Shown here in pieces: positions 726 to 63,287 of a stretch of DNA of 64,000 nucleotides. Source of the stretch: Clostridia bacterium (GTDB taxonomy: Bacteria > Bacillota > Clostridia > Oscillospirales > CAG-272); NCBI GenBank assembly GCA_017501225.1, contig JAFVXH010000006.1, positions 882 through 64,881 of the forward strand, read 5' to 3'. Within the stretch, counting starts at the first letter, position 1. Every line of letters starts with the position of its first letter. A program made the position numbers and the translations under genes. Under the pieces are notes generated by a model, which saw nothing but the letters and a program-made list of their open reading frames with translations, did no database searches and was not told the DNA's origin.

Positions 726-1592
726 TCAGATGGTGCCGGTGACGGTGAGCGTGCTGACACCGGGGGTGACGATCTGAACACCGGTATCGGGATCCTGCGT
801 GTAGGTTGCGGCAGGAACCGTGATCTGACCCGCAACGGTTGCGAATTCACCCGTAGCATCGTTGTAGGTGTAATTTGCGGGCTCGGTCCAGGCGGCGCCG
901 TTAAAGCTGACGACGAGGTCGGAGAGCAACGGATCAAAGGTGTCCTCCACGATGGCGTTCGCCGTAGCGTCTGCCGCGGTGTTGCCGTAGTTCTGGATGA
1001 CGAAGGTATAGGTCACTCTGCCGTTTTCCGCGATCGGAATGGGCTCAATGCTCTTGATGATGGTCAGATTGGGCTCGGCAGCGGCGCGCACGGTTTCGCT
1101 GACCTCCACGGGCGTGGTGATTCCCGTTCCCGTGACGGTTGCGGTGTTGACGATGGTGCCGTCGGTTCCGAGCGGTGCAAATTCGTTCACGCTTGCCTCG
1201 TATACAAGAATGAGGTTGCTGTTTGCGGGCAGGGTGATGCCGCCAAAGCTCAGAGGCGTTGTGGACAGGACCGTCGGGGTAGGCTGCAGAACGCCGTTGA
1301 TGAACAGGCGAACCGAGCCGTCAACGTAGGTCAAGGGATAGAGCGTCGCGGGGGGAAGCAGAGGACCGAGGTCGTACGCGCCGAGATCGTCGGTGACGGT
1401 GATCCCCGAAACAGCGGTAGAACCGCTATTGACAACGCTGATCACGTAGGTGACGTCATCCCCGATGGCGTAATTGTCGGAGAGCGCCGTCTTGGATCCC
1501 GAAAGGACCTCCAGAATTTCGCCAACCGCAATATTGGAATTGATGACCGTATCGTTATAGGACAGGCGTGCCTGATTGGTAAACTGTGCCAT
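726..1592 (-). CDS. DUF11 (conserved repeat domain) beta-sandwich protein, no signal peptide
   Basis: Start refined to MAQFTNQA (ATG 1592, AAAGGAG RBS); two DUF11-like units (GDDVTYVISVVNSG..VTDDL; GRVTYTFVIQNYG..VEDTF). Confidence 0.8.
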   Translation of the reverse strand: MAQFTNQARLSYNDTVINSNIAVGEILEVLSGSKTALSDNYAIGDDVTYVISVVNSGSTAVSGITVTDDLGAYDLGPLLPPATLYPLTYVDGSVRLFINGVLQPTPTVLSTTPLSFGGITLPANSNLILVYEASVNEFAPLGTDGTIVNTATVTGTGITTPVEVSETVRAAAEPNLTIIKSIEPIPIAENGRVTYTFVIQNYGNTAADATANAIVEDTFDPLLSDLVVSFNGAAWTEPANYTYNDATGEFATVAGQITVPAATYTQDPDTGVQIVTPGVSTLTVTGTI

Positions 1593-1922
1593 GATTTTCT
1601 CCTTTCTGAAAGTGTGGGGATACGGCGCGCGACCGTACCCCCTGCTTACAGAATATGCGACTGTCTTGGATTTTGTCAAATTTTGTCAATGGGGGAAGGG
1701 GAGAACTTGAGCCTCTGCAAGTTTCCCCCGTCGGAACCTGACGGTAACGTTACCTCGGTGAAAGATTTTCTGTACCCTTTCTATAACAGTCAAAACTGCA
1801 AATATGATAGGTCAGGATCATCAGGCTGCAGAAGGAAATCGTAAATACTCATCATTTAGTGATGTAATCAAGTGTTTAAAATTCGACCCAAAAGTGAAAT
1901 GTAAATTGTATAGGGAAATAGC

Positions 1923-1951
1923 TTGACTTTTTTGAGTAACGGTGATATAAT
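1923..1951 (+). promoter_or_regulatory. sigmaA promoter of mscS
   Basis: TTGACT(1923-1928)-17 bp-TATAAT(1946-1951). Confidence 0.8.
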
Positions 1952-1985
1952 TACACAGCAAGCTAATTTCAAGGAGGCATTAAAT

Positions 1986-2801
1986 ATGGAATGGCTAAAA
2001 AATACTCTTGACATTATTGTTTCTTGGGCAACAAATACAGGATTAAAACTACTTATTGCGCTTGTTCTTATGTTTGTTTCGTTCAAGATAATCAACTGGG
2101 TTGCTAAACGGATCATAAAAAATGGTGAAAAAAAGAAACTCGATAAGACCATTGTAAAAACCATTTCGTATCTCGTTAAGATAGGCGGGAAAGTGATTGT
2201 TACGGTTTGTCTTGTCGGTTACGTTGGCATTGATACGAGTGCTATTACGGCACTGATCGCATCTTTTGGTGTTTGTATCGGACTTGCAGTAAACGGAGCC
2301 GTCTCAAATATCGCAGGAGGAGTTCTGATACTCGTTACGCGTCCCTTCAAGGTGGATGATTTTATTGAAGCGCAAGGCGTTTCCGGAACAGTTGCAGATA
2401 TCCATATGATAAGCACTAAGGTAGTTACGGGAGACAATAAGGTCGTACATATTCCCAACGGAGCGCTTGCGAACGGAAATATTATCAATTATTCCGAAAA
2501 AGAGCTTCGACGTGTTGACTTTAACTTTTCGATTGCGTACGATGCTGATTTTGATAAGGCGAGATCTGTCGTTGAAGATATTCTGAAGTCTCACGAGCTT
2601 GTACTTGATGATCCCGCGCCTTTTGTAAGAATGAGTAAGCATGCAGCTTCATCTATTGATATAGTCGCACGTGCTTGGGTAAAATCCGATGATTATTGGA
2701 CGGTAAATTTTGACGTGCTTGAAAAAGTTAAGGCTGAATTTGATAAGAACCATATCGAGATTCCCTTCGAACAGCTCGATGTTCACGTCAAAAACAATTA
2801 A
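1986..2801 (+). CDS. mscS: Small-conductance mechanosensitive channel
   Basis: Three TM segments, then GLAVNGAVSNIAGGVLILVTRPFKVDDFIE..GTV..I..ISTKVVTGDNKVVHIPNG; AGGAGG RBS before ATG 1986. Confidence 0.95.
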   Translation: MEWLKNTLDIIVSWATNTGLKLLIALVLMFVSFKIINWVAKRIIKNGEKKKLDKTIVKTISYLVKIGGKVIVTVCLVGYVGIDTSAITALIASFGVCIGLAVNGAVSNIAGGVLILVTRPFKVDDFIEAQGVSGTVADIHMISTKVVTGDNKVVHIPNGALANGNIINYSEKELRRVDFNFSIAYDADFDKARSVVEDILKSHELVLDDPAPFVRMSKHAASSIDIVARAWVKSDDYWTVNFDVLEKVKAEFDKNHIEIPFEQLDVHVKNN

Positions 2802-2804
2802 AAT

Positions 2805-2853
2805 AAGGGGGCTGTCTCAAATGCGATTTTAAGAGCCTTTGAGGCAGCCCCTT
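2805..2853. terminator. Long hairpin between mscS and the convergent tRNA-Leu transcript
   Basis: AAGGGGGCTGTCTCAAA...TTTGAGGCAGCCCCTT imperfect inverted repeat. Confidence 0.6.
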
Positions 2854-2857
2854 CCAT

Positions 2858-2878
2858 TGGTGCGGGTAAGAGGACTTG
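2858..2878 (-). repeat. Third copy of the tRNA-Leu(CAG) 3' end (21 nt, CAAGTCCTCTTACCCGCACCA)
   Basis: Plus strand TGGTGCGGGTAAGAGGACTTG is identical to 3459-3479. Confidence 0.95.
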
Positions 2879-3159
2879 GTCTCGTCGCTACGACGCAAAG
2901 CCGAGGTTTTGATTTCGGCTTTGCTTCGCTCCTCGGTCAAGCGCGGCTCTGACAGTCCACCGGACTGTCATTCACTACCGCGCCCCTTCAAGTCCTTTTG
3001 TTCTATTCGCAGCAAACAAAAGACGGCACGCTGTTGCGTACCGTCTTTTGTTTGTGAAGGAGCGATAAAAAAGATATTTTACCTTTTTAATCGATGGATT
3101 TGAACCCAAATATAATTTAATGCTTTTCGACGGAAGGAGAAAAGCTTCCTTAGCACCTT

Positions 3160-3238
3160 TTCACTATTCACTTTTACCTATTACCTAATCGACAAGTTTC
3201 GTAAGAGAAGAGTGAAAAGTGAAGAGTTAAGAGTGAAG
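3160..3238. repeat. Two mutually inverted heptamer arrays
   Basis: TTCACTA TTCACTT TTACCTA TTACCTA (3160-3187) and AGTGAAA AGTGAAG AGTTAAG AGTGAAG (3211-3238). Confidence 0.8.
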
Positions 3239-3279
3239 AAGTAAAAATCGACAAGCTTCTGTCGAAACTTGTCGATTTT

Positions 3280-3303
3280 TGGTGCGGGTAAGAGGACTTG
3301 AAC
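3280..3303 (-). repeat. Second copy of the tRNA-Leu(CAG) 3' end (24 nt, T-loop to CCA)
   Basis: Plus strand TGGTGCGGGTAAGAGGACTTGAAC is identical to 3459-3482. Confidence 0.95.
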
Positions 3304-3420
3304 GCTCCACAAGCACCGCATAAAATGCGGCAGTCATCCAAGGTTTGGTTTTCGCGGTGCTCCATAGCGAATTTTGCAAGCAAAATCCGCGCGTGAAGAA
3401 CCGTCGGCTTTTGCCAAACC

Positions 3421-3459
3421 AACAGAAAAGGGATACGCGATGCGTATCCCTTTTCTGTT
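3421..3459 (-). terminator. Intrinsic terminator right after tRNA-Leu(CAG)
   Basis: AACAGAAAAGGGATACGC-gat-GCGTATCCCTTTTCTGTT perfect stem. Confidence 0.8.
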
Positions 3460-3545
3460 GGTGCGGGTAAGAGGACTTGAACCTCCACGAAGTTGCCCCC
3501 ACTAGAACCTGAATCTAGCGCGTCTGCCAATTCCGCCATACCCGC
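3459..3545 (-). tRNA. tRNA-Leu(CAG)
   Basis: GCGGGTATGGCGGAATTGGCAGACGCGCTAGATTCAGGTTCTAGTGGGGGCAACTTCGTGGAGGTTCAAGTCCTCTTACCCGCACCA; anticodon loop TTCAGGT, long variable arm, encoded CCA; TTGACA-17-TATAAT promoter at 3601-3573. Confidence 0.98.
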
Positions 3546-3988
3546 ATGTTGATTTTGTTATCAACAAATGAGATTATACCACATCAAAATCTCTTTGTCA
3601 ATAGTATTTTTAAGTTTTTTTGGATTATTTTACAACCGAGCGCAAAGCTTCTCGCAATCTTCACTTTTTTGCCGGATTTGAAAAAATATCGATTTTTGTC
3701 AAATCTCGCAAATTCCTTGATTTATTGGAAGGGCTGTGATACCGGGTCGTCAGCGATGCGCTTCTCCAAATCGAAGCACTCCCTCAGCAACCGTAAATCC
3801 CCCCGCCCCATGTGCGTGTTCTCCGTTAAGGATCATACGCATGTAGGGCGGGGTTTTGTCTGTTTTTGGGTTTTTCGCTCCACTTTGCCATCAAAACAAG
3901 GCTTATAAAAAAACTTTTCACCACCGTATTGACAAGGAATTTTCGGTATGATATAGTGAATTTGTAATCAAAAACAAGGGGGATAAAA

Positions 3989-6499
3989 ATGATGAAAAAA
4001 CTCGTTGCCGCTTTCCTGTGTCTGATCATGCTTCTGTCGCTTTTTTCTTGCAAAAAAGGAAGCACTGAAGGTATAGACAATCCCTCAGATCCCGATGGTA
4101 GTACCGCTTTAGATACCTCCATCAACTCAAACACCAACCCTACAAGTGCAAATTACGACTCCGTGTTGCGTGTCTATCGACGTATCGTTGACAGTTATCC
4201 GATCGTCAATCAGAATCCTCGTGCGGTCGCCGCAGAGCTTGGTATTCAAGATGAAGCCGAAATAGAATCTTTCGTTGACTTATATACATCTATCCTTCTG
4301 TTTTATCCCGGCAGAGGGCAAGAGGATCGCGTATCTCCTCACTATAAGCTTGGTTGCGGATATTCTGTAAAGGACCTCAACGGCGACGGCGTGGACGAGC
4401 TTGTTTTGATGAACAAGGATTATGCTGTTATGGCGATTTTCTCGTATGCCGACGGACATCCGGTTTTGCTCGGCAATTATTGGGAAAGAAATGTTTGCTG
4501 GATAGACGGTGACGGACTGATTCACAACCATGGAAGCAGTGGAGCAGATCGTTCGACCAATGCGCTCTATCAAATTGCCGACGGTGGCGACCGCCTCGAG
4601 CTGATTGCCGAGTTCGGTACCGACGGTCACGAATGGATAGACGGGGTTGCTTACACAAAATATTACAAGGTGGTAGATGGCGAAAAGGTTTCTATCACCG
4701 AAAGTGAATGTGCCGCGTTGGTTGAGCAATACGGAAAAGCCCTCGGTTCCGTGTCGGGAGCTGAGGCGACCAAGCAATATTCCGGCATGATCTTTACCTC
4801 GCTCTATACCGAAGCCGAGATCGCTATGGAAATGTACGAGGCGGCGATCAAAGGAGAAATCTGCGTTCTGGATGAGCGCTTAGGTGAGATAAAATTGAAG
4901 AACTGCCGTTTCCCGAGTGACAACGTAAGACTTGACGAATGTGAAATCCTTACCAAAGCAATTTTAGATATGGATCAGGACGGAATCAACGAATACGTGA
5001 TTCAATCCCAAGCAAAGGATCATATCGTATTACGCTACTATGATGGCACAGTTTACAGCTATTGCTTTGACAGCAAGAATTTCTTCAATTTGAATACCGA
5101 CGGTTCTTTTTATTGGATCGATTCTTGCGAATTAGATCATTGCACGCGCGGATACAGTCAAATCGCATTTGAGGGATCATCATTCAGTATCAAAGAAATA
5201 TACAGAATCAAACAGACAAGCCCCTATGATTACGGTGACGGTACCCATGAATATTATGTGGATGGTAAGCAGATCACGCGTGAAGAATTTCGGGATTATT
5301 GTGACTCCAATTGCAGAGGCAAAACAAGAGCGATCTTCTCTCCGCTTGATATTGATACTTCGTGTGAGTATCCGATCTCTTCGGAAAAAGCCTATGAGCT
5401 TGCTTCTGAGTTTTGGGGACTTCAAAGTGGAATGGAAGAGGGGGCTGCCGGAACACGTTATGTGCTCAACATCGTTGTATTGGAAAAGCCGAATAGCGAT
5501 ACACGGTGCTACCGCATCGGTTGTCAGTACGAAGGATATACGAACCACGTAATTGACAGCTTCTACGCTCAACCTCCGACGTCCGTCAGAATACATAAGG
5601 AATTAATTGTAAATGCCATAACGGGAGCGTGTCGGGATTCTATAGACCCCGAATTCGAAGCGGAAGCTGAGGTCGCTATGGAAATGTACGAGGCGGCGAT
5701 CAAGGGAGAAATCTGCGTTGTTGATGAGCACTCGGGTGAGATCAAATTAGAAGACTGCCGTTTCCCGAATAACAACGTAAGCCTCGAAGACTATGGAAGC
5801 CTTGACAAAGCGATCCTGGATATAGACGGCGACGGGATCAACGAATACGTGATCCGGTCACCCCAAAGAGATCATATTATTATGCGTTACTATGACGGCA
5901 AGATCTACAGTTATGGCTTTGATTTCAAAAGTCTTTTCAGGCTAAATACCGACGGAACGTTTTATTGGTATTCCGACGCCGGCGATTCAACGTCCAATTT
6001 GCCAACGGTCGGTTTGAGTCAGATCACGTTTCAGGATTCCTCTATCGTCATCAGGGAAATTTACAAGTTAAAAAATGTTTGTGAATATGCAGAAGAATAT
6101 TACCTTGACGGTTGCCGAGTGACACGGGAAGAATTTTTGGGTTACTACAACAAAAGTGATAAAACCTGGGTACAATTTTCTCCTTTTGAGTTTTCGTGTC
6201 AATATCCGATAACCGCTGAGAAGGCATGGAGTATTGCGGATGATTATTTGGGAAACCCGGATGGAGGACATGACGTCGCAACGGGAAAAACATACTTTTT
6301 CAAGGTCGTCATAACCGAAAAACCAACCGATGGCTCAGAATATTACATCGTGGTTGTGCAGCAATTTTGCTTTAGCCACATCTTCGACGGTTGGCAGATC
6401 TCAAACCCGGACCCTTTATATGAATTTGAAAGATTGGCTGTCAATGCAATCACCGGTGAGTGTTGGAAGTATGTAGATCCCGTTCCCGACGGAAAATGA
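3989..6499 (+). CDS. Multi-module lipoprotein with an internal ~284-aa duplication and DxDxDG motifs
   Basis: Lipobox LFSC; module AMEMYEAAIKGEICV..CRFP..KAILD.D.DGINEYVI occurs twice, 852 nt apart (4811 and 5663); promoter TTGACA-17-TATAGT at 3929-3957. Confidence 0.85.
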   Translation: MMKKLVAAFLCLIMLLSLFSCKKGSTEGIDNPSDPDGSTALDTSINSNTNPTSANYDSVLRVYRRIVDSYPIVNQNPRAVAAELGIQDEAEIESFVDLYTSILLFYPGRGQEDRVSPHYKLGCGYSVKDLNGDGVDELVLMNKDYAVMAIFSYADGHPVLLGNYWERNVCWIDGDGLIHNHGSSGADRSTNALYQIADGGDRLELIAEFGTDGHEWIDGVAYTKYYKVVDGEKVSITESECAALVEQYGKALGSVSGAEATKQYSGMIFTSLYTEAEIAMEMYEAAIKGEICVLDERLGEIKLKNCRFPSDNVRLDECEILTKAILDMDQDGINEYVIQSQAKDHIVLRYYDGTVYSYCFDSKNFFNLNTDGSFYWIDSCELDHCTRGYSQIAFEGSSFSIKEIYRIKQTSPYDYGDGTHEYYVDGKQITREEFRDYCDSNCRGKTRAIFSPLDIDTSCEYPISSEKAYELASEFWGLQSGMEEGAAGTRYVLNIVVLEKPNSDTRCYRIGCQYEGYTNHVIDSFYAQPPTSVRIHKELIVNAITGACRDSIDPEFEAEAEVAMEMYEAAIKGEICVVDEHSGEIKLEDCRFPNNNVSLEDYGSLDKAILDIDGDGINEYVIRSPQRDHIIMRYYDGKIYSYGFDFKSLFRLNTDGTFYWYSDAGDSTSNLPTVGLSQITFQDSSIVIREIYKLKNVCEYAEEYYLDGCRVTREEFLGYYNKSDKTWVQFSPFEFSCQYPITAEKAWSIADDYLGNPDGGHDVATGKTYFFKVVITEKPTDGSEYYIVVVQQFCFSHIFDGWQISNPDPLYEFERLAVNAITGECWKYVDPVPDGK

Positions 6500-6552
6500 C
6501 GTAACCGTTCACCGATTAAAATCTATTAAAATTTAAAATTCAGGAGGTCAAA

Positions 6553-7494
6553 ATGAGAAAAACCGCAGCCCTTGTTCTTTGCCTGATGATGATCCTGTCG
6601 CTCTTTTCGTGTGATGGAAGCGGCGACCAAGGTCCTTTGCCGACCGAACCGCCCGGCACCACCGCATCTCCCACGACTGAGGCGAGCACGACCGCTCCCC
6701 CTCAGGAAAATCCGGAGCCGACTCCCGAGGATGTCCAAAATGAGCTGGCGCTGCAAGCCTACGGCGCGGCGATCAGAAACGAGATCAACGTATATTACCC
6801 GTTGCTGAACAACGATACACCGACTGAAACTTATTTTGAAAGAATATGTGGCTCGGAAAAAGGCAATCCCATGCGTCAGGCACTGGTGGATATGGACCGG
6901 GACGGAATTGAAGAATTGATCTTGAAATATGGATCCTTTTTTGTCATTCTTCATTTCGAAAATAATAAGGTGTACGGAACCGATTTTCACTTTGGTGCCA
7001 TGGAAATGATCTATACCGACGGTTCTTTTTCCTGGAGTCATACTGACGATATGTTCGGATATGAATGCGGCATCAGCCGGGTTTCGTTCGCAAACGGAAT
7101 CATGAAAGTAGAAGAGCTTTGCAGAAAAGAAGGCGATTCCAGATTTTTTATCAGCGGTGCACAGGTTACAAAGGAGCAATACGATGACTATCTGGACGGT
7201 AACGAAAGAACCCCCGTTGACTTTGCTCCTTTTGATATCTATTTCCTTGATTCCGACGCATTAAAGGCAATAGAACTCGCTTCTGAATATTGGGGGATCA
7301 AGGACGGTGACTTTGATCCCGAAAGGGGACTTAGATACCGTGTGATCTGCAAGAGAAAAATAGATGAAGGACGCTACGAGGTTTCTTTGTACCGCTTTAT
7401 CTACAATCGCTCTTACGAGCATTTTGCACTTGCCACGGTGAACGTGGACACGGGAGAAATCACGGTGGAGAAATATCCAGACGGCAAGGGGTAA
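6553..7494 (+). CDS. Lipoprotein paralogous to the repeated module of the upstream gene
   Basis: Near-identical signal peptide (LCLMMILSLFSC), Pro/Thr linker, DMDRDGIEE, AIELASEYWG, ends PDGKG; AGGAGG RBS. Confidence 0.85.
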   Translation: MRKTAALVLCLMMILSLFSCDGSGDQGPLPTEPPGTTASPTTEASTTAPPQENPEPTPEDVQNELALQAYGAAIRNEINVYYPLLNNDTPTETYFERICGSEKGNPMRQALVDMDRDGIEELILKYGSFFVILHFENNKVYGTDFHFGAMEMIYTDGSFSWSHTDDMFGYECGISRVSFANGIMKVEELCRKEGDSRFFISGAQVTKEQYDDYLDGNERTPVDFAPFDIYFLDSDALKAIELASEYWGIKDGDFDPERGLRYRVICKRKIDEGRYEVSLYRFIYNRSYEHFALATVNVDTGEITVEKYPDGKG

Positions 7495-7676
7495 GCTGTT
7501 TTCGTCCGTTCCTCATTTTGACAGAACAAGCAAAAAATAGGTCGATTTTGCGCACTTTCCGTCCTGTCATTGACAACCCGTCTTGCCTTACAGTATAATA
7601 CTTTCGTAATGTTACCGCTCCCCGACGGTGTGATGCGCCCTTGGGGAGCGCGAGTATTTTAACTGAGAGGTTTTCA

Positions 7677-9068
7677 ATGGACAAGGTGATCGCCGCTCTG
7701 AACCGAGCGCTCGGCTTTGCGTACGATAATATTTTGAGCATTGCGATGCTGGTGCTCCTGATCGCCGCGGGAATTTTTCTTACGGTCAGGACGGGCTTTT
7801 TTCAATTCAGGCGCTTTGGCTACGTGCTTAAAAACACGGTAGGGAAGCTCTTTCACAATAATCTGCATCAAAAGGATTCCGGAAGCGTCAGCCCGTTCCA
7901 GGCAGTCACGACCGCGCTTGCGGGTACGATCGGCACGGGAAGCATCGCAGGTGTTGCGACGGCACTCGTCTTAGGCGGTCCCGGCGCGGTATTCTGGATG
8001 TGGGTGAGTGCTTTGTTCGGTATGGTGACCAAGTACTCCGAGATCCTGCTCGCCTTGAAATTCCGCGAAAAGAGCGAGAGCGGGGCGAATATTGGCGGTC
8101 CTATGTATTACATCGAAAAGGGACTTGGTGTCAAGTGGCTTGCCATGCTCTTTGCCGCGTTTGCCATGATCGCCTGCATCGGTACGGGCAACGCGACGCA
8201 ATCCAACTCCATTTCGGGCGTTCTGCATCTCAATTTCGGTGTAGCCCCCTGGATCACGGGATTGATTCTGACTGTGATCGTCGCAGTGGTCATCATCGGC
8301 GGTGTCAAAAGAATCGCGACGGTCAATGAAAAGCTGGTGCCCGTCATGGCGATCTTCTTTATCATTGCCGCCGCACTTGCACTGATCTTCCACGTTGGCA
8401 GAATTCCGCATGCATTTGCTTTGATTTTCAAGGAAGCGTTCAACTTCAGATCCGCCCTTGGCGGTGTTGCGGGATACGGTATCCTGTCGGCGATGCGCTA
8501 CGGTGTGGGCAGAGGAGTGTTCTCCAACGAGGCGGGTCTTGGCAGTGCCCCCATCGCGCACTCCGCATCCAGCGCCGAGGATCCCGTCAAGCAAGGACTG
8601 TGGGGCATTTTTGAGGTGTTTATCACGACCATCATCATCTGCACCATGTCGGCGCTTGTCATTCTGACCTCGGGAATCTATTCCTCCGCCTTTGACGCAG
8701 GACTTGCTCCCGACGTCAGCGGTGCGGCGCTCAGCAGTGCCGCGTTCGAGGAGGCACTCCCGCACGTGGGCGGTATCGGGATCGCCGTTTCCACCGTCTT
8801 TTTCGCGCTCTCGACCGTGCTCGGTTGGGCGTATTACGGAGAGGTGAGTGTGGGATATCTGTTCAGGAATCACTCCAAGGTAGCGATCACGGTTTACAGA
8901 GTGATCTACGTGGCATTCGTTTTCATCGGTGCGATCGCGGAGATCAATACCGTGTGGTTGATTGCCGATTGCTTCAATGCCCTCATGGCACTGCCGAACC
9001 TGATCGCCCTGATCGCGCTTTCCGGTCTTGTCGTAAAGATCACAAGGGAGCATTTTGCGAAGAAATAA
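7677..9068 (+). CDS. Sodium:alanine/glycine symporter (AgcS/AlsT family)
   Basis: PFQAVTTALAGTIGTGSIAGVATA, GGPGAVFWMWV, GGPMYYIEKG, RGVFSNEAGLGS, LMALPNL; promoter TTGACA-18-TATAAT at 7570-7599. Confidence 0.95.
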   Translation: MDKVIAALNRALGFAYDNILSIAMLVLLIAAGIFLTVRTGFFQFRRFGYVLKNTVGKLFHNNLHQKDSGSVSPFQAVTTALAGTIGTGSIAGVATALVLGGPGAVFWMWVSALFGMVTKYSEILLALKFREKSESGANIGGPMYYIEKGLGVKWLAMLFAAFAMIACIGTGNATQSNSISGVLHLNFGVAPWITGLILTVIVAVVIIGGVKRIATVNEKLVPVMAIFFIIAAALALIFHVGRIPHAFALIFKEAFNFRSALGGVAGYGILSAMRYGVGRGVFSNEAGLGSAPIAHSASSAEDPVKQGLWGIFEVFITTIIICTMSALVILTSGIYSSAFDAGLAPDVSGAALSSAAFEEALPHVGGIGIAVSTVFFALSTVLGWAYYGEVSVGYLFRNHSKVAITVYRVIYVAFVFIGAIAEINTVWLIADCFNALMALPNLIALIALSGLVVKITREHFAKK

Positions 9069-54101: not shown

Positions 54102-57719
<3,618 letters not shown>

Positions 57720-57736: not shown

Positions 57737-57770
57737 AGCCGCCGCAATCAAACGATTGCGGCGGCTTTGT
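57737..57770. terminator. Bidirectional terminator between rpoC and the convergent operon
   Basis: AGCCGCCGCAATC-aaac-GATTGCGGCGGCT. Confidence 0.82.
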
Positions 57771-57789: not shown

Positions 57790-58332
57790 TCAATGCTTGC
57801 CGTTCAGCCCGAAGCGCTTTTTCAGGCGGTAGAGGTAAAAGGTGATCAGACGCGTAATGGCAAGGTCGTAGACTAAGAAGCAAGCCAACGCTATGACGTA
57901 GGTGACCAAGAGCATCCAGCGCTGTGTGCCGAAGTCGATCAGATTGGGGAATATCCAATAAAAGACGAGATAGATCAGGACGATCCCGACGTGAAAGACA
58001 CCGAGCTTACAAAGGAAGGAAAAGACGCGCGGCAGACGTTCCAGATACGCCTTCAGGATGGGGTAGTAGCCAAGAAAAAGAGTATAGAACACGGCAGGCG
58101 TTTTTTGCACGGGCAACAGGAAGGAGAGCACCGCCGTTGCGAAAAAGACGCCCCACGGATAAAAGCCGCCCATCTCGATCATGGCGTAAACGCACAGGAG
58201 CGAGGCAAGCCCTGCCGCTGTCAGATCCAGCACGTCGATCAGAGATCCGAGCGAGATGAAGATCACGCCAAGGGCGGTGAGCATCGCGCACACGGTCAGA
58301 TATTTGGTTTTGACGGATTGATGTTTTCTCAT
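57790..58332 (-). CDS. Conserved integral membrane protein (5-6 TM; ECF S-component-like size)
   Basis: Hydrophobic throughout; AMLTALG N-terminal helix, LGYYPILKAYLE; third gene of the operon. Confidence 0.75.
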   Translation of the reverse strand: MRKHQSVKTKYLTVCAMLTALGVIFISLGSLIDVLDLTAAGLASLLCVYAMIEMGGFYPWGVFFATAVLSFLLPVQKTPAVFYTLFLGYYPILKAYLERLPRVFSFLCKLGVFHVGIVLIYLVFYWIFPNLIDFGTQRWMLLVTYVIALACFLVYDLAITRLITFYLYRLKKRFGLNGKH

Positions 58333-58350
58333 CCAAGCTTCCTTTCGGGA

Positions 58351-58965
58351 TCAGCAACAGCCGATCAGGTCGCCGCCCATGCATTCACAGCAGCAGTCGG
58401 CACACATAAGCCCTGTGCAGATGTCGCAGACACCGACCGAGGAGGACGCCGTATTGTATCCGCGTCCGTAGCCGGTGAATTGCTGCTGCAGCCGTTCCTT
58501 TGCCATGCGGTATTCGCTGTTTTGCGGATCCATGGCGCAGGCTTGCTCAAAGAGTCTTTGGGCATCCAGATGATATCCGCGCTTGAGCAGGACGCAGCCC
58601 ATCAGGAAATGCCATTCGGCAGTTTGCTCCTCACGCGGGATCGAGTTGAGAATGCGCTCCGCCTCAAAGATCTGGTTGCGGTTGATCAAATGGCGTACGT
58701 TTGCATAGCGTGCGTCGCCACTTCCTGTGCTGCCGGGGTTTCCCGTAAAGGAGGAATTGCTGCTGCTTCCTTTCCCGGAACGCATCTTCTGGATCTCCTC
58801 GTACGCGGCGTTGATTTCCTTCATCTTTTCGCCCGCCAGATCGGCAAGATCGCTGTCTACGTATTTATCGGGGTGATATTTTCTCGCCAGATCCCGATAT
58901 GCACGCTTGATTTCTTCATCGCTGGCATCGGGAGATACGCCGAGAATCTGATAGGGTGTTTTCAT
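58351..58965 (-). CDS. J-domain protein with TPR segment and Cys-rich C-terminal tail
   Basis: [27 protein letters not shown] (HPD); [19 protein letters not shown]-like; tail [25 protein letters not shown]. Confidence 0.9.
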
Positions 58966-58973
58966 TTTGCGTT

Positions 58974-59867
58974 TCACCTTTCGGAGTCAGTTTGTTTGGT
59001 CCGACGCTTCTTTTTGCAGGTCGGAAAGAGGGCGCTCTGCGCCGCCTTGGGAAGCCCTAAGTAGAGGATATTTGCAAGGATTTCCTGAATTTCGGGATGT
59101 GCTGGAGGATCGATGAGCAAAAACGCCTTTTCCGCGTCGCTAAGATGTGCCACCAGTGCGTGCTGAACGAGCTCCTTTTCGGATTGCTCAAGGGAATTGC
59201 CGAACTGTGCGGCGTAAGGATTGAAGCGCCCCTTTTTGCAGTCCTCCTCGAGATCGTTTGCCGCGTCGAGCAGATAGATCCAGCGCCCGACGGCGTCGCC
59301 GATATTTCCCGCGAGTCGCGCGTCGGTGCCCTCAAGCCCTTCTGCGAATACCGCACGCATGAGTGCCCCGAAATAGGAGGCGGGGAGCTCGATACTGTCA
59401 TTCGGTTCCGCCTCAAACGCGGAGAGGGCAGAGAGCTGCTCCGCGATCTGCGCATCCAGCTCGGGATGCCTTTTTTTCGCCTTGCGGTAGGCAGATACCA
59501 AAAACGGACGGGCAAGCAGGGCACGGAGCTTTTTCAATCCGCTCTCATCCTTGCAGTCGTCCAAGAGCTTTTGGTAGCTCAAAAGTGCCGAGGCGTCGGC
59601 ACAGTAGGCAAGCGTGGGGGAGTTCATCACCGCCTTGCGCTTTCGGATCCAATGCAGGGGGCACCGCTTTTTTTTGACGGTCAGTGTTTCCTTGGAAAGC
59701 GCGATGCGCACGGCTGCTAAGAATACAAAATCATAGCTGAGCGTCATGCGGGAGCATTGCCCCGTGCATTTGCCCATGCTTTTGCAAAGCCCGCAATAGA
59801 GCGCGCGATAGCATTCATATTCACGCAGTCGCAGCTCCTGCGAATCGATGCGGACGTATCCCAGCAT
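58974..59867 (-). CDS. DUF5685 family protein
   Basis: [30 protein letters not shown]-terminus; LLDDCKDE and [11 protein letters not shown]; GGAGG RBS. Confidence 0.8.
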
Positions 59868-60064
59868 GCAAGCATCCTCCTTTTTGGAAACAATACCCAT
59901 ACTACTATCATACCCCATTTATTTGTCAATTGCAAGAAGATTTTGTGTATTTTTCGCAAACACGGACAAAAAGCACCGTTTTTTGCTTTGTGTACCGACT
60001 CTTGACACATCTGGCGTTTTGTGGTATACTGATGGGGAAGGATTGGAATTGGGAGGATGATGGA

Positions 60065-61855
60065 ATGAAGGAAAAAATCAAGCAAATTTTTTCTTTGGAG
60101 AGCGTGATCTGCCGTCTGTTTGCATCGTGGTTCTGCTTCCACGCCATGCGGATGCTGGAGGGAAAGGGCTTTGAAACGGTCAAGGCGGGGGCTGACGTAT
60201 CCTTCGGTGAGCTTTTCCTGATCGGCGCATTCTTTTTCGTATTATACAGTCTGCTTGCGTATTTTCTCCCGACCTATCCGACCGATACGTGGGGGATGCT
60301 GCTGGGCTCAAGCATTTGCGCGTTTGTCTGGATCTTCAAATACGGAAACGCTTCCAACCATATCCTTTTGACGCTGGCGGTCGTGCTTGCCTACGCGATG
60401 ATGATCGTCTACGTGGTGCGCCGTAACCTGGGGTGGCTCGAAAAATGGGATCCCAAAACACGCATTGTTGTGATCTGCGCCGCCTTGTTTGCCGTTTCCG
60501 GGTGTGTGATCCTTTCCGTGATCACCTGCCTGCGATACAAGACCTTCTCCAGCCCCAACTTTGACTTCGGACTGTTTTGCAACATGTTCTCCAACATGAG
60601 AAAAACGGGACTTCCGCTGATCACCAGCGAGCGTGACACGCTTCTCTCGCACTTCGCGGTGCATATCTCTCCGATCTTTTATCTGCTCCTTCCATTCTAT
60701 TACGTTTTTCCCTCACCCATGACCTTGCAGATCGGGCAAGCGGTGATTTTGATGGCGGGTGTGATTCCCGTCGTACTGCTGGCAAGGCATTATAAGCTCG
60801 GAAGCAAAGCCACCGTTCTGCTTTCCCTGATCTATTGCGCGTATCCCGTGCTGACAACGGGATGCTTTTATGACATCCACGAGAATTGCTTCTTGCCGTT
60901 CTTCCTTCTCTGGACCTTCTATTTCTTTGAAAAAGAGAAATGGATCCCAATGTACCTCTCGGCGTTCTGCGTTCTGATGGTCAAGGAGGATGCCGCGATC
61001 TTTTTGGCGATCTTTGCCGTATACGTCATTCTCTCTCGCAAAAAATATCTGCACGGTGGGATCTTAGCGGCGGCATCGGTCGGGTATTTCCTGCTCGCAA
61101 CGCACCTGATCAACACCTACGGTGACGGGGTTCTGAGCAACCGCTTCGATAACCTGATCCCCGATGCGGAAAGCGGAATCTTCGGCATCGTCAAGGTAGG
61201 GCTTACCAATCCCGGATTTTTCCTGACGCAGCTCTTTACCGAGGGCGACGGCGGATGGGATAAGATCGTTTATTTTCTGCTGCTCCTTTTGCCGCTCGGC
61301 TTTTTGCCGTTCTGCACCAAGAGGGCATCGCGCTGGCTGCTGCTCGCGCCCATGCTGCTCAACTTTCTCTCCTATTACCAGTATCTCTATCATCCCAATT
61401 TCCAATACAGCTTTGGCATCATCGCGTTTTTGATGTATGCGGCGGTGCAGAACGTAGCAGAGCTGAAGGCTCCTACGAGAAGAACGCTGCTTTCCATCGG
61501 TGCCGCGGCTGGCTGCTGTCTGTATATCTTCTCCGTTTTACCCTCGCTGGACTCCTACGTCACACGCTGGCAGGAGGGTAAGGAGCAGTATGTGGAGATG
61601 AAGCAGACGCTGGAGGCATTGGACGAGCGCGCGTCGCTCAACGTTTCTACCTTCCTTTTGGCACACGTTGCAGATCACGACGTGGTTTACGAGGTTGGAT
61701 ATCACGGCGATAAGCCTGACGTGGATTTCGTGGTGCTGGATAAGCGCTATTCCTACCGCTCCACCATGTTCAATTACACCAAGGCAGGATACACGGTATA
61801 TCAGGAAACCGACTATATTCTGATTTTGCAAAAGGGAAGCGACGCTCACGCGTGA
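60065..61855 (+). CDS. DUF2079-domain polytopic membrane protein (GT-C-like)
   Basis: FDFGLF..SHFAVHISPI..PFY..P..TLQIGQA; YDIHENC; VKED; extra N-terminal TMs. Confidence 0.78.
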   Translation: MKEKIKQIFSLESVICRLFASWFCFHAMRMLEGKGFETVKAGADVSFGELFLIGAFFFVLYSLLAYFLPTYPTDTWGMLLGSSICAFVWIFKYGNASNHILLTLAVVLAYAMMIVYVVRRNLGWLEKWDPKTRIVVICAALFAVSGCVILSVITCLRYKTFSSPNFDFGLFCNMFSNMRKTGLPLITSERDTLLSHFAVHISPIFYLLLPFYYVFPSPMTLQIGQAVILMAGVIPVVLLARHYKLGSKATVLLSLIYCAYPVLTTGCFYDIHENCFLPFFLLWTFYFFEKEKWIPMYLSAFCVLMVKEDAAIFLAIFAVYVILSRKKYLHGGILAAASVGYFLLATHLINTYGDGVLSNRFDNLIPDAESGIFGIVKVGLTNPGFFLTQLFTEGDGGWDKIVYFLLLLLPLGFLPFCTKRASRWLLLAPMLLNFLSYYQYLYHPNFQYSFGIIAFLMYAAVQNVAELKAPTRRTLLSIGAAAGCCLYIFSVLPSLDSYVTRWQEGKEQYVEMKQTLEALDERASLNVSTFLLAHVADHDVVYEVGYHGDKPDVDFVVLDKRYSYRSTMFNYTKAGYTVYQETDYILILQKGSDAHA

Positions 61856-61917: not shown

Positions 61918-62451
61918 TCAATCAAGCAGATCGAAGATCGCGCGGCGTACCGCTGCCTTTTTCTTGTTCTTGGAATGCTTCTTGGCGGCTCTGACCGTCA
62001 GTCCTCCGAGGATGCAAACGGCTACCACGGGGATGAGGACCTTGCCAACCTTTTTTGCTGTCGAGACGTCCTTCTTGGAAAGGGGCAATATCTTCTTGCG
62101 AGGTGCCTGCGCGGGCGTTTCTTCGCGTGCTGCCTGCGCCTCCAGCGCCATCAGCTCTGCGGCAATGCGCTCAGCCTCGCTGGCATCGGCAATCGCCTGC
62201 GCTTCCATCAAACGGAATTCCAGATCCTCCTGCTTCTCGGCGTAGTCGCCAAACGCAAGCAGAATCCCTGCGACGATCACGATCAACAGCGCGCCCCCCG
62301 CGGTGATGGCAAGATACTGCCATTCAAACGGAAGATTGAGAACCTCGGGCATACAAAGCACGCAATATGTAATGGAGCTCAGAATAAAAGCGAGCCATCC
62401 AATGGTAAATATCACCTTTGCAGCGGTGCGGAATTTTACTGATTTCATCAT
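61918..62451 (-). CDS. Hypothetical membrane protein (2 TM, acidic Ala-rich helix, third TM, basic tail)
   Basis: GGAGGAG RBS, hydrophobicity pattern, terminator downstream. Confidence 0.7.
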   Translation of the reverse strand: MMKSVKFRTAAKVIFTIGWLAFILSSITYCVLCMPEVLNLPFEWQYLAITAGGALLIVIVAGILLAFGDYAEKQEDLEFRLMEAQAIADASEAERIAAELMALEAQAAREETPAQAPRKKILPLSKKDVSTAKKVGKVLIPVVAVCILGGLTVRAAKKHSKNKKKAAVRRAIFDLLD

Positions 62452-62582: not shown

Positions 62583-63287
62583 TCAGTCGATGGACAGGAC
62601 GAACACTACGTGGGGAAGCGAGTGGAACTTTTCCAGCTTTTCCTCGGGGCTGACCTTCGCGGGGATGCGGATCAGGGTTTCGACGCCGACGTAGGATCCC
62701 GTATTGCTGCGGGCGGGTGTGACCTGAACCTCCTTGGCGGAGAACTGGGTTTTTAAGGTGTTGATGGTTTCCTGCACGGCATCGACACCGTCGATCTCCA
62801 GATAGACGAACATCTTCTGGCGCTTGAGATTGAGCAGATGCTCAAGGCTGGAGCCAAACGTAAAGGCGAATACGATGGCAGTGGCGGTGATAAACGCGCC
62901 GAAGTAGAAGCCGAATCCGACGGCAAGACCGATGGCAGCGGTTGCCCAGAGTCCTGCGGCGGTGGTAAGTCCGGTGATCTGAGAATTTCCTTTTTTGAGC
63001 AGAATGGTTCCCGCACCAAGGAAACCGACACCGCTCATGACCTGCGCGGAGATGCGTGCCACATCCGTGGCGATTCCGAGCTCAAGCGTCAGGTACAGAC
63101 CGACCAGAGCGGTCAGGGCTGCTCCGAGAGATACCAGCATGTGCGTGCGCAGACCCGCGGCACGCCCGTGAAACTCACGCTCGATTCCGACAAGTCCACC
63201 TGCCAGGGCGGCAAGGAAAATGCGCAACAGCGTTGATACGAGGTTAAAGTCCTTGAGATATTCGTAAGCGTCTACTAAAAAATCCAC
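62583..63287 (-). CDS. MgtC/SapB family membrane protein
   Basis: LAGGLVGIERE..AAGLRTHMLVSLGA, RISAQVMSGVGFLGAGTI, GLTTAAGLW. Confidence 0.93.
   Translation of the reverse strand: MDFLVDAYEYLKDFNLVSTLLRIFLAALAGGLVGIEREFHGRAAGLRTHMLVSLGAALTALVGLYLTLELGIATDVARISAQVMSGVGFLGAGTILLKKGNSQITGLTTAAGLWATAAIGLAVGFGFYFGAFITATAIVFAFTFGSSLEHLLNLKRQKMFVYLEIDGVDAVQETINTLKTQFSAKEVQVTPARSNTGSYVGVETLIRIPAKVSPEEKLEKFHSLPHVVFVLSID

Follow-up and report, generated by a model that had tools for sequence, protein, structure and literature searches.

A conserved operon of DUF5685, a cysteine-tailed J-domain protein and a membrane protein in gut Clostridia: a possible prenyl-diphosphate-using module linked to Hsp70

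What a protein of the family DUF5685 does beside a co-chaperone with a cysteine-rich tail and a small membrane protein is the question raised by a three-gene operon of a Clostridia bacterium. The operon lies in a stretch of 64,000 nucleotides (assembly GCA_017501225.1, contig JAFVXH010000006.1, positions 882 to 64,881), which is hereafter called the window and whose numbering is used throughout. The three genes run head to tail on the minus strand from 59867 to 57790, with intergenic gaps of 8 nt (DUF5685 to J gene) and 18 nt (J to membrane gene); the tight coupling noted in a preliminary description of this DNA is borne out by the coordinates of the open reading frames:

58974..59867, minus strand: DUF5685 gene, ATG at 59867 to the stop at 58974, 297 residues, Pfam PF18937
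58351..58965, minus strand: J-domain/TPR/Cys-tail gene, ATG at 58965 to the stop at 58351, 204 residues, Pfam DnaJ and TPR
57790..58332, minus strand: membrane-protein gene, ATG at 58332 to the stop at 57790, 180 residues, without a Pfam match

According to our analysis, DUF5685 probably handles a prenyl diphosphate, and the sequences and structural models support, for the operon as a whole, a putative enzyme that uses a prenyl diphosphate, a partner for it that would recruit DnaK, be lipidated or bind metal, and a component in the membrane. More tentatively, and at somewhat less than an even chance, the operon may serve as a membrane-tethering module for the Hsp70 system, in which DUF5685 would S-prenylate the Cys-rich tail and thereby tether the DnaK-recruiting co-chaperone.

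The fold of DUF5685 was predicted with AlphaFold2 from an alignment of 81 sequences; all models in this work were made of single proteins, and the geometry of motifs was read from the predicted secondary structure. The model had a predicted local distance difference test (pLDDT) score of 94.5 and a predicted template modelling (pTM) score of 0.91, and consisted of an all-helical bundle with one beta-hairpin (residues 63-81). A Foldseek comparison, which had been suggested as a check of the preliminary description, returned as its top 50 PDB matches trans-prenyl-diphosphate synthases (of geranylgeranyl diphosphate, farnesyl diphosphate, octaprenyl, solanesyl and heptaprenyl products) or the prenyltransferase MoeN5, without any other fold among them. 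The probabilities of these matches were 0.94-1.00 and the TM scores 0.29-0.62, while the E values were weak (2.7e-3 to 3e-2). The class I isoprenoid-synthase fold is thus a prediction from the model, as the preliminary description had expected, and the absence of such a fold, which that description named as a finding that would refute it, was not observed.

The assignment to the family itself is clear: PF18937 matched with 240 bits against a cut-off of 26.7 (E = 4e-71) over model positions 1-269 of 272, and the homologues all start with M-F/L-G-Y, which supports the ATG at 59867. The family is large, with 6612 clusters at 50% identity recovered by its profile from a large protein library. In the literature DUF5685 was found to be named only in passing, in a list of domains. 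NCBIfam holds no family for DUF5685 or for the membrane protein, and the PADLOC models of anti-phage defence matched none of the three proteins. A search of all PDB sequences with the DUF5685 profile returned only designed helical repeat proteins (E >= 0.007) and no solved relative.

Two Asp-rich helical motifs had been noted in DUF5685 and likened to the paired DDxxD-like motifs of class I isoprenoid synthases; a lack of conservation would have spoken against the preliminary description. Both motifs are present and conserved, but their form is DxxxD and DxxxDxxxD. The second Asp of the 'DD' in the window is not conserved, and the first motif is therefore D-x3-D (D103, D107); the second is D-x3-D-x3-D (D201, D205, D209). 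D103, D201 and D205 were found in 100% of the 81 sequences, D107 in 99% and D209 in 95%, and all five were retained even in the most divergent members. In the model each motif closes a long helix at its C-terminal end (84-107 and 180-204/206-211, respectively). The other invariant or near-invariant positions comprise G3, Y4, Y24, C25, C28, C69, E152 and D160 in the first part of the protein and G194, R/K195, Y198, A202, N216, N266 and G271 in the second. Judged by sequence, the Asp pattern is squalene/phytoene-synthase-like rather than a paired DDxxD.

Profile comparison led to the same family. With hhalign, DUF5685 was aligned with the squalene/phytoene synthase profile (SQS_PSY) over 154 columns at P = 7.6e-4 and an HH probability of 25%, and both conserved motifs fell on those of SQS_PSY; a control with two accepted relatives, polyprenyl_synt and SQS_PSY, was no stronger (P = 1.5e-3). 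DUF5685 shares with CrtM, YisP and other members of this family a size of about 280-300 residues, the two DxxxD-type motifs at matching positions and, after the second motif, a D-x3-D-x3-G-x-(Y/F)-N-P stretch that resembles RDxxEDxxxGRxYxP. It differs from them in that the family model does not detect it and the HH probability stays at that low value. To our knowledge, neither a Cys site with a beta-hairpin like that of DUF5685 nor partnership with a J-protein and a membrane protein has been reported for a squalene/phytoene synthase. Membership in either established family was rejected: PF00494 did not match DUF5685 and the profile likeness is only remote, and for PF00348, which includes the ComQ-type enzymes, there was again no Pfam match, with hhalign at P = 0.15.

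The N-terminal part of DUF5685 carries the further elements YCGLC and CPLH, both of which had been pointed out before and are present. However, only three of the cysteines are invariant (C25, C28 and C69), the additional N-terminal ones of the window's protein are not conserved in the 81-sequence alignment, and at the last position of CPLH 62% of the sequences have His and 33% have Asn. Because this His varies, the putative metal-like site would consist of three fixed cysteines and a variable fourth position.

The second gene encodes the co-chaperone, whose parts are as follows:

58792..58956, minus strand: J-domain, residues 4-58, with HPD, Pfam PF00226
58519..58725, minus strand: TPR region, spanning roughly residues 81-149, with the Pfam matches TPR_19 (81-119) and TPR_2 (116-149)
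58354..58428, minus strand: Cys-rich C-terminal tail, 9 Cys in 25 residues, from the sequence and the alignment of homologues

The J-domain matched PF00226 with 64 bits against a cut-off of 27.8 (E = 1.4e-17). Its HPD, which stands within 'KYHPDKY', is intact, as had been stated together with the nine cysteines in the last 25 residues and the -CC end of the tail; all three features were confirmed in the sequence, and the HPD was kept in 70 of 72 complete homologues. The protein is not a canonical type I DnaJ with zinc-finger and C-terminal client-binding domains, a possibility that was rejected since TIGR02349, which has a cut-off of 377 bits, scored 59 and matched in the J-domain alone. Within 37 homologues the tail consensus, which starts C-D-x-C-x2, is essentially invariant, and the J-proteins of other lineages have different Cys-rich tails, some of them hydrophobic and membrane-like (LCxxLCxxxLCC). 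Between lineages the spacing of the cysteines differs, whereas their density and C-terminal position are kept, which is more in keeping with a lipidation string than with a fixed metal site. The conserved residues of the tails are the cysteines, and no conserved Trp was found among them. A literature search for bacterial cysteine-string J-proteins gave no result.

The association of the three genes was followed in two sets of genomes: a phylum sample of 401 evenly drawn genomes, from which the neighbourhoods of the best 30 loci of DUF5685 carriers were taken, and 80 further genome loci found by a search with the DUF5685 alignment. DUF5685 occurred in 48 of the 401 genomes. Of the 30 best loci, 28 had a J-protein with a Cys-rich C-terminus directly 3' of DUF5685 on the same strand, and a contig end truncates one of the other two; in the second set the J-protein followed DUF5685 in 78 of the 80 loci. 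All three genes were found in the same order and on the same strand in 68 of these 80; seven of the other 12 loci stop immediately past the J gene, which gives 68 of 73 for the membrane gene where there was room to judge. Cultured isolates among the carriers of the trio in this set include Lutispora thermophila DSM 19022, Anaerovorax odorimutans DSM 5092 and Petroclostridium sp. X23. In the phylum sample, strong matches to the membrane protein were obtained in 24 genomes, every one of which has DUF5685, and in none of the 353 genomes without DUF5685, counts which, as the sampled genomes are related and not independent, do not amount to a statistical test. The recurrence of the gene order in dozens of genomes shows that the operon arrangement is more than chance, and the co-occurrence of the three genes, which the preliminary description had set beforehand as a test that could refute it, holds in 68 of 73 loci and 24 of 24 genomes.

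Beyond the trio, no neighbour was conserved in more than 23 of the 80 loci; those which recur are an ABC exporter, UvrB, a PgsA-like protein, MutS2 and IspH-S1. In the 30-locus sample, tails of the type DCCCEC..GGDLI..CC were always accompanied by the membrane gene. A strict rule coupling tail type to membrane partner was rejected on the 80-locus set, in which the membrane gene joins many other Cys-tail variants.

Distant lineages show which parts of the system recur when the arrangement changes. At locus L112 a Cys-rich tail is fused to the C-terminus of DUF5685, and the genes for a small protein, a polyprenyl synthetase and a Peptidase_A24-like membrane protein follow. A second fusion of DUF5685 and tail, with 31 cysteines, lies downstream of a thioredoxin gene at L169. 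In one genus (L118, L120 and L121) the partner is a TPR protein of 123 residues with the same tail and no J-domain. At L168 a polyprenyl synthetase is followed by a TPR-like/Zn-ribbon protein with a Cys tail ending ...CCGWIGVGLVGLFCCGVIESGGC and then by DUF5685. In the lineage of L113, L116, L117, L166 and L167, genes for GrpE, Hsp70, a 228-residue protein, a second Hsp70, a polyprenyl synthetase and a DUF2232-like membrane protein form a set that is convergent with DUF5685 and a 158-residue protein. Among the loci of the phylum sample with hydrophobic tails (LCxxLCxxxLCC and variants), 8 of 10 have another membrane partner, of about 135 residues with two helices and a C-terminal zinc ribbon, and at least one locus with this partner has an Hsp70 gene just upstream. 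Four divergent arrangements of the DUF5685 cluster thus include a polyprenyl synthetase gene (L112; L113/L116/L117; L166/L167; L168).

What recurs is DUF5685 with a C-terminal Cys string, part of the Hsp70 machinery and a small membrane protein, joined by a dedicated polyprenyl synthetase where there is one. The neighbouring genes for polyprenyl synthetase, Hsp70 and GrpE in distant lineages, together with the Cys-tail fusions, are independent support for the putative prenyl-diphosphate-using enzyme with its partner and a membrane component.

Side observations were made at several loci. The L112 fusion cluster (888-8868, G165) lies between genes for hydrogenase maturation, with hypF at one end and hypE and hypD at the other. 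At L168 (1-6906, GCA_009771505.1) a set consisting of a YukD ubiquitin-like protein, a ThiF E1, a JAB protein and a UQ_con E2 is located directly upstream of the polyprenyl synthetase, Zn-ribbon/Cys-tail and DUF5685 genes, and a weak JAB/LysM protein also precedes DUF5685 at L113. The metagenome contig of L166 carries fragments of a group II intron reverse transcriptase/maturase near the DUF5685 cluster (1-1042 and 4748-5332). In genus g186 (L024, L026 and L027) the Cys-tailed partner has 138-154 residues and lacks the HPD, which indicates that the function of the J-domain is lost or reduced there; the tail and the membrane gene are retained.

The membrane protein gave an AlphaFold2 model with a pLDDT of 93.6 and seven predicted helices, that is, a small polytopic protein. 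Its top four Foldseek matches, the only coherent ones, were RibU, the S component of an energy-coupling factor (ECF) transporter, and were weak (E 0.5-1, TM about 0.5). The protein of the window had no Pfam match even at E <= 1; 6 of 63 members of its family matched DUF2232 (YybS-like) and 2 of 63 ECF_trnsprt. The likeness to ECF S components and DUF2232 is weak in every respect, and a DUF2232-like protein is the one that sits in the divergent Hsp70/polyprenyl-synthetase clusters. A comparison of the two by hhalign (P = 0.008) is only suggestive of homology between them. In one genus the membrane gene is unlinked, about 0.4-0.7 Mb from DUF5685. There (L171, 3100-4586, G261) it overlaps the start of a Glycos_transf_4 gene of the MraY/WecA type, whose products use polyprenyl phosphate; a CheR gene lies upstream and a GerM-like gene downstream.

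The host genome, an assembly of 1.74 Mb that is 95.5% complete, sets the frame for a mechanism. It has one DnaK gene, with DnaJ adjoining, on another contig than the operon, and only two J-domain genes, DnaJ and that of the operon. DUF5685 and polyprenyl synthetase occur in one copy each, and a search of the genome for a squalene/phytoene synthase gene found none.

In the scheme that we propose, DUF5685 would bind a prenyl diphosphate, supplied by the cell's single polyprenyl synthetase, through Mg2+ on the two Asp motifs and would ionise it. The prenyl group would then be moved to one or more thiols of the Cys-rich tail of the neighbouring J/TPR protein, and activation of the thiol may fall to a metal bound at the three invariant cysteines of DUF5685. 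Once lipidated, the tail would keep the J/TPR protein at the membrane, next to the small polytopic protein of the third gene, and the J-domain, with its intact HPD, would draw the only DnaK of the genome to this site. From the sequences and models we infer the binding of prenyl diphosphate, the S-prenylation of the tail, the anchoring and the role of the membrane protein. The binding is suggested by the predicted fold, the conservation of the motifs and the neighbouring polyprenyl synthetase genes; the prenylation of the tail is suggested by adjacency, by the fusions, by the ComQ-type precedent and by a Cys spacing that drifts while the density is kept. Taken as a bacterial protein S-prenylation system, in which DUF5685 prenylates the Cys string of the J-protein and so gives a lipid-anchored Hsp70 recruiter at the cytoplasmic membrane, the proposal must still be called doubtful.

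The precedent comes from enzymes of the isoprenoid-synthase fold that prenylate a peptide, namely ComQ, PalQ and the P domain of ChrPC; in the pairs ComQ/ComX and StheQ/StheX the enzyme gene has a cognate peptide gene (PMC13290415; PMC10853753). ComQ of Bacillus and its relatives resemble DUF5685 in being all-helical, in having two Asp-rich motifs, in the position of the gene beside that of the proposed polypeptide substrate and in a donor that would be a prenyl diphosphate of primary metabolism. They differ in that they modify tryptophan in short secreted peptides, whereas the candidate here is a Cys string on an intracellular co-chaperone; moreover, DUF5685 has an extra N-terminal three-Cys element and, by profile comparison, is no nearer to polyprenyl_synt than expected by chance. 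The module was rejected as a Trp-acceptor peptide prenyltransferase resembling trans-isoprenyl-diphosphate synthases (ComQ, PalQ, ChrPC-P), as its tails lack a conserved Trp.

In eukaryotes, lipid-anchored J-proteins are represented by the palmitoylated DNAJC5 and the farnesylated DNAJA/Ydj1, which the bacterial protein resembles in its architecture and in the proposed logic. DNAJC5 has the same succession of an N-terminal J-domain with HPD, a linker and a dense Cys string, which in that protein serves as a lipid anchor. No sequence homology of the strings can be claimed, and the bacterial protein differs in its TPR region, its -CC end and the lack of a CaaX box. The eukaryotic modifying enzymes, DHHC acyltransferases and the alpha/alpha-barrel farnesyltransferase, have folds other than that of DUF5685. 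In Escherichia coli, DjlA (with DnaK) and DjlB and DjlC (with HscC) are anchored by ordinary transmembrane helices and are not known to have an enzyme partner or a Cys string. They share with the proposed module a specialised J-protein through which Hsp70 activity would be directed to the inner membrane, and some relatives of the module carry an Hsp70 paralogue of their own, as in the case of HscC.

Several points weigh against prenylation of the tail by DUF5685. The Foldseek support is weak (best E 2.7e-3) and comes from a predicted model, the Pfam models SQS_PSY (PF00494, at E <= 0.01) and polyprenyl_synt (PF00348) do not match DUF5685, and no significant profile match to polyprenyl synthetases was obtained (P = 0.15), although the motifs fell on FARM and SARM. 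Fusions of an enzyme with its substrate are unusual. The cluster of the L113/L116/L117/L166/L167 lineage has no Cys-tailed protein, and the tail therefore cannot be the sole substrate. A tail this acidic and this dense in cysteines (DCCCEC), together with the three invariant cysteines of the enzyme, would be just as fitting for the binding of a metal or Fe-S cluster. Finally, the characterised peptide prenyltransferases of isoprenoid-synthase type all modify tryptophan, not cysteine (PMC13290415).

The possible binding of metal just mentioned leads to an alternative in which the tail is not a substrate: it would bind a metal or cluster and, with DnaK, load or maintain the three-Cys site of DUF5685, which would be a metalloenzyme acting on an isoprenoid lipid, by analogy with the action of HscB/HscA on IscU. 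The exactly three invariant cysteines of DUF5685 and the variable fourth position (H/N) match a pattern seen in clusters or zinc sites that keep one ligand open. The richness of the tail in Asp/Glu and Cys (DCCCEC..GGD), the occurrence of the family in anaerobes (Clostridia and a Thermotoga control genome), the thioredoxin gene that precedes the L169 fusion and the fusions themselves, which suit a cofactor module, point in the same direction. We nevertheless consider this partnership improbable: the Cys spacing of the tails differs from lineage to lineage, as would be uncommon in a defined metal centre, some tails have a hydrophobic, membrane-like character, C28 is replaced by Ala in one divergent fused member, and the obligatory membrane partner is left without a role.

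An equally improbable alternative makes DUF5685 an enzyme of lipid metabolism, which would turn a prenyl diphosphate into a membrane isoprenoid or prenol by head-to-head condensation, hydrolysis or cyclisation; the squalene-synthase-like phosphatase YisP is a model for the second of these. The membrane protein would then bind or move the lipid, and the Cys-tailed J-protein, in an assembly or regulatory role, would bring the soluble enzyme to the membrane. The nearest profile likeness of DUF5685 is indeed to squalene/phytoene synthases, polyprenyl synthetase genes adjoin in the four arrangements, and the unlinked membrane gene of one genus is translationally coupled to Glycos_transf_4. One lineage is entirely without the Cys tail, and a CDP-alcohol phosphatidyltransferase gene is located just upstream in 8 of 80 loci. 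Yet such an enzyme gives no account of the Cys-rich tail that stands beside DUF5685 or is fused to it in nearly all lineages, or of the recurrent genes for Hsp70, J-proteins and GrpE, which are protein-handling machinery, and the neighbours outside the trio are otherwise variable housekeeping genes.

Still less credible is a non-catalytic scaffold, with a DUF5685 fold that binds a lipid or the Cys tail and a trio that forms a structural membrane complex and a DnaK client or adaptor: although DUF5685 has no significant sequence match to any characterised enzyme family and few conserved basic residues for diphosphate binding (R/K195, K76 and R40), five acidic residues near-invariant at canonical metal-binding positions over thousands of sequences are typical of active enzymes, and the dedicated polyprenyl synthetase genes nearby point to the supply of a substrate.

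Prenylation of protein cysteines is regarded as eukaryotic. If DUF5685 does prenylate the tail, the module would add to bacteria a post-translational modification that is new for them and would place DnaK at the membrane in a novel manner; the lipid-anchored J-protein would be a bacterial counterpart of farnesylated Ydj1 and of the cysteine-string protein, modified by an enzyme whose fold is unrelated to that of the eukaryotic protein prenyltransferases. A function would also be assigned to three gene families, frequent in gut Clostridia, that have no annotation. Should the tail bind metal instead, it would still be new to find a J-protein dedicated to an isoprenoid-type enzyme. The module is widespread and conserved across gut Clostridia, with a predicted isoprenoid-type enzyme locked to a cysteine-string co-chaperone and a membrane protein. 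The bacterial peptide-modifying enzymes of this fold known to date all act on tryptophan in secreted peptides (PMC13290415).

Two candidate transcription signals frame the operon:

59907..59935, minus strand: sigma-70-like promoter candidate TTGCAA-17-TATGAT, from a consensus scan, 9/12
57737..57766, both strands: intrinsic-terminator hairpin with a 13-bp stem including 9 GC pairs and a T-rich tail after it

Judging from their spacing, the three genes are probably co-transcribed, and a Shine-Dalgarno-like purine run precedes each of the three ATGs. The promoter named in the preliminary description is present as a sequence at 59935-59907, but it agrees with the consensus at only 9 of 12 positions, and sites of this grade number three in the region against 1.8 +/- 1.3 expected from shuffled sequence. 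This count is not above expectation, so that TTGCAA-17-TATGAT is only plausible as the promoter of the operon. The hairpin (57766-57737) closes the operon, with the convergent rpoC (rpoBC) on its other side; a single GC-rich hairpin of 13 bp thus serves as terminator for rpoC, whose stop is at 57719, as well as for the membrane-protein gene, which ends at 57790.

Divergent from the operon is a gene for a predicted DUF2079 membrane protein (59930-61855, plus strand; PF09852, E = 3e-47). Its open reading frame as listed begins at TTG, and the true start may be further in; the gene has a strong promoter-like site of its own at 60002-60030 (11/12). Farther on, a 177-residue protein (61918-62451, minus strand) has one or two membrane helices, a charged Ala/Glu-rich middle and a faint PepSY_TM match, and after it comes a protein of the MgtC/SapB family (62583-63287, minus strand; E = 3e-36).

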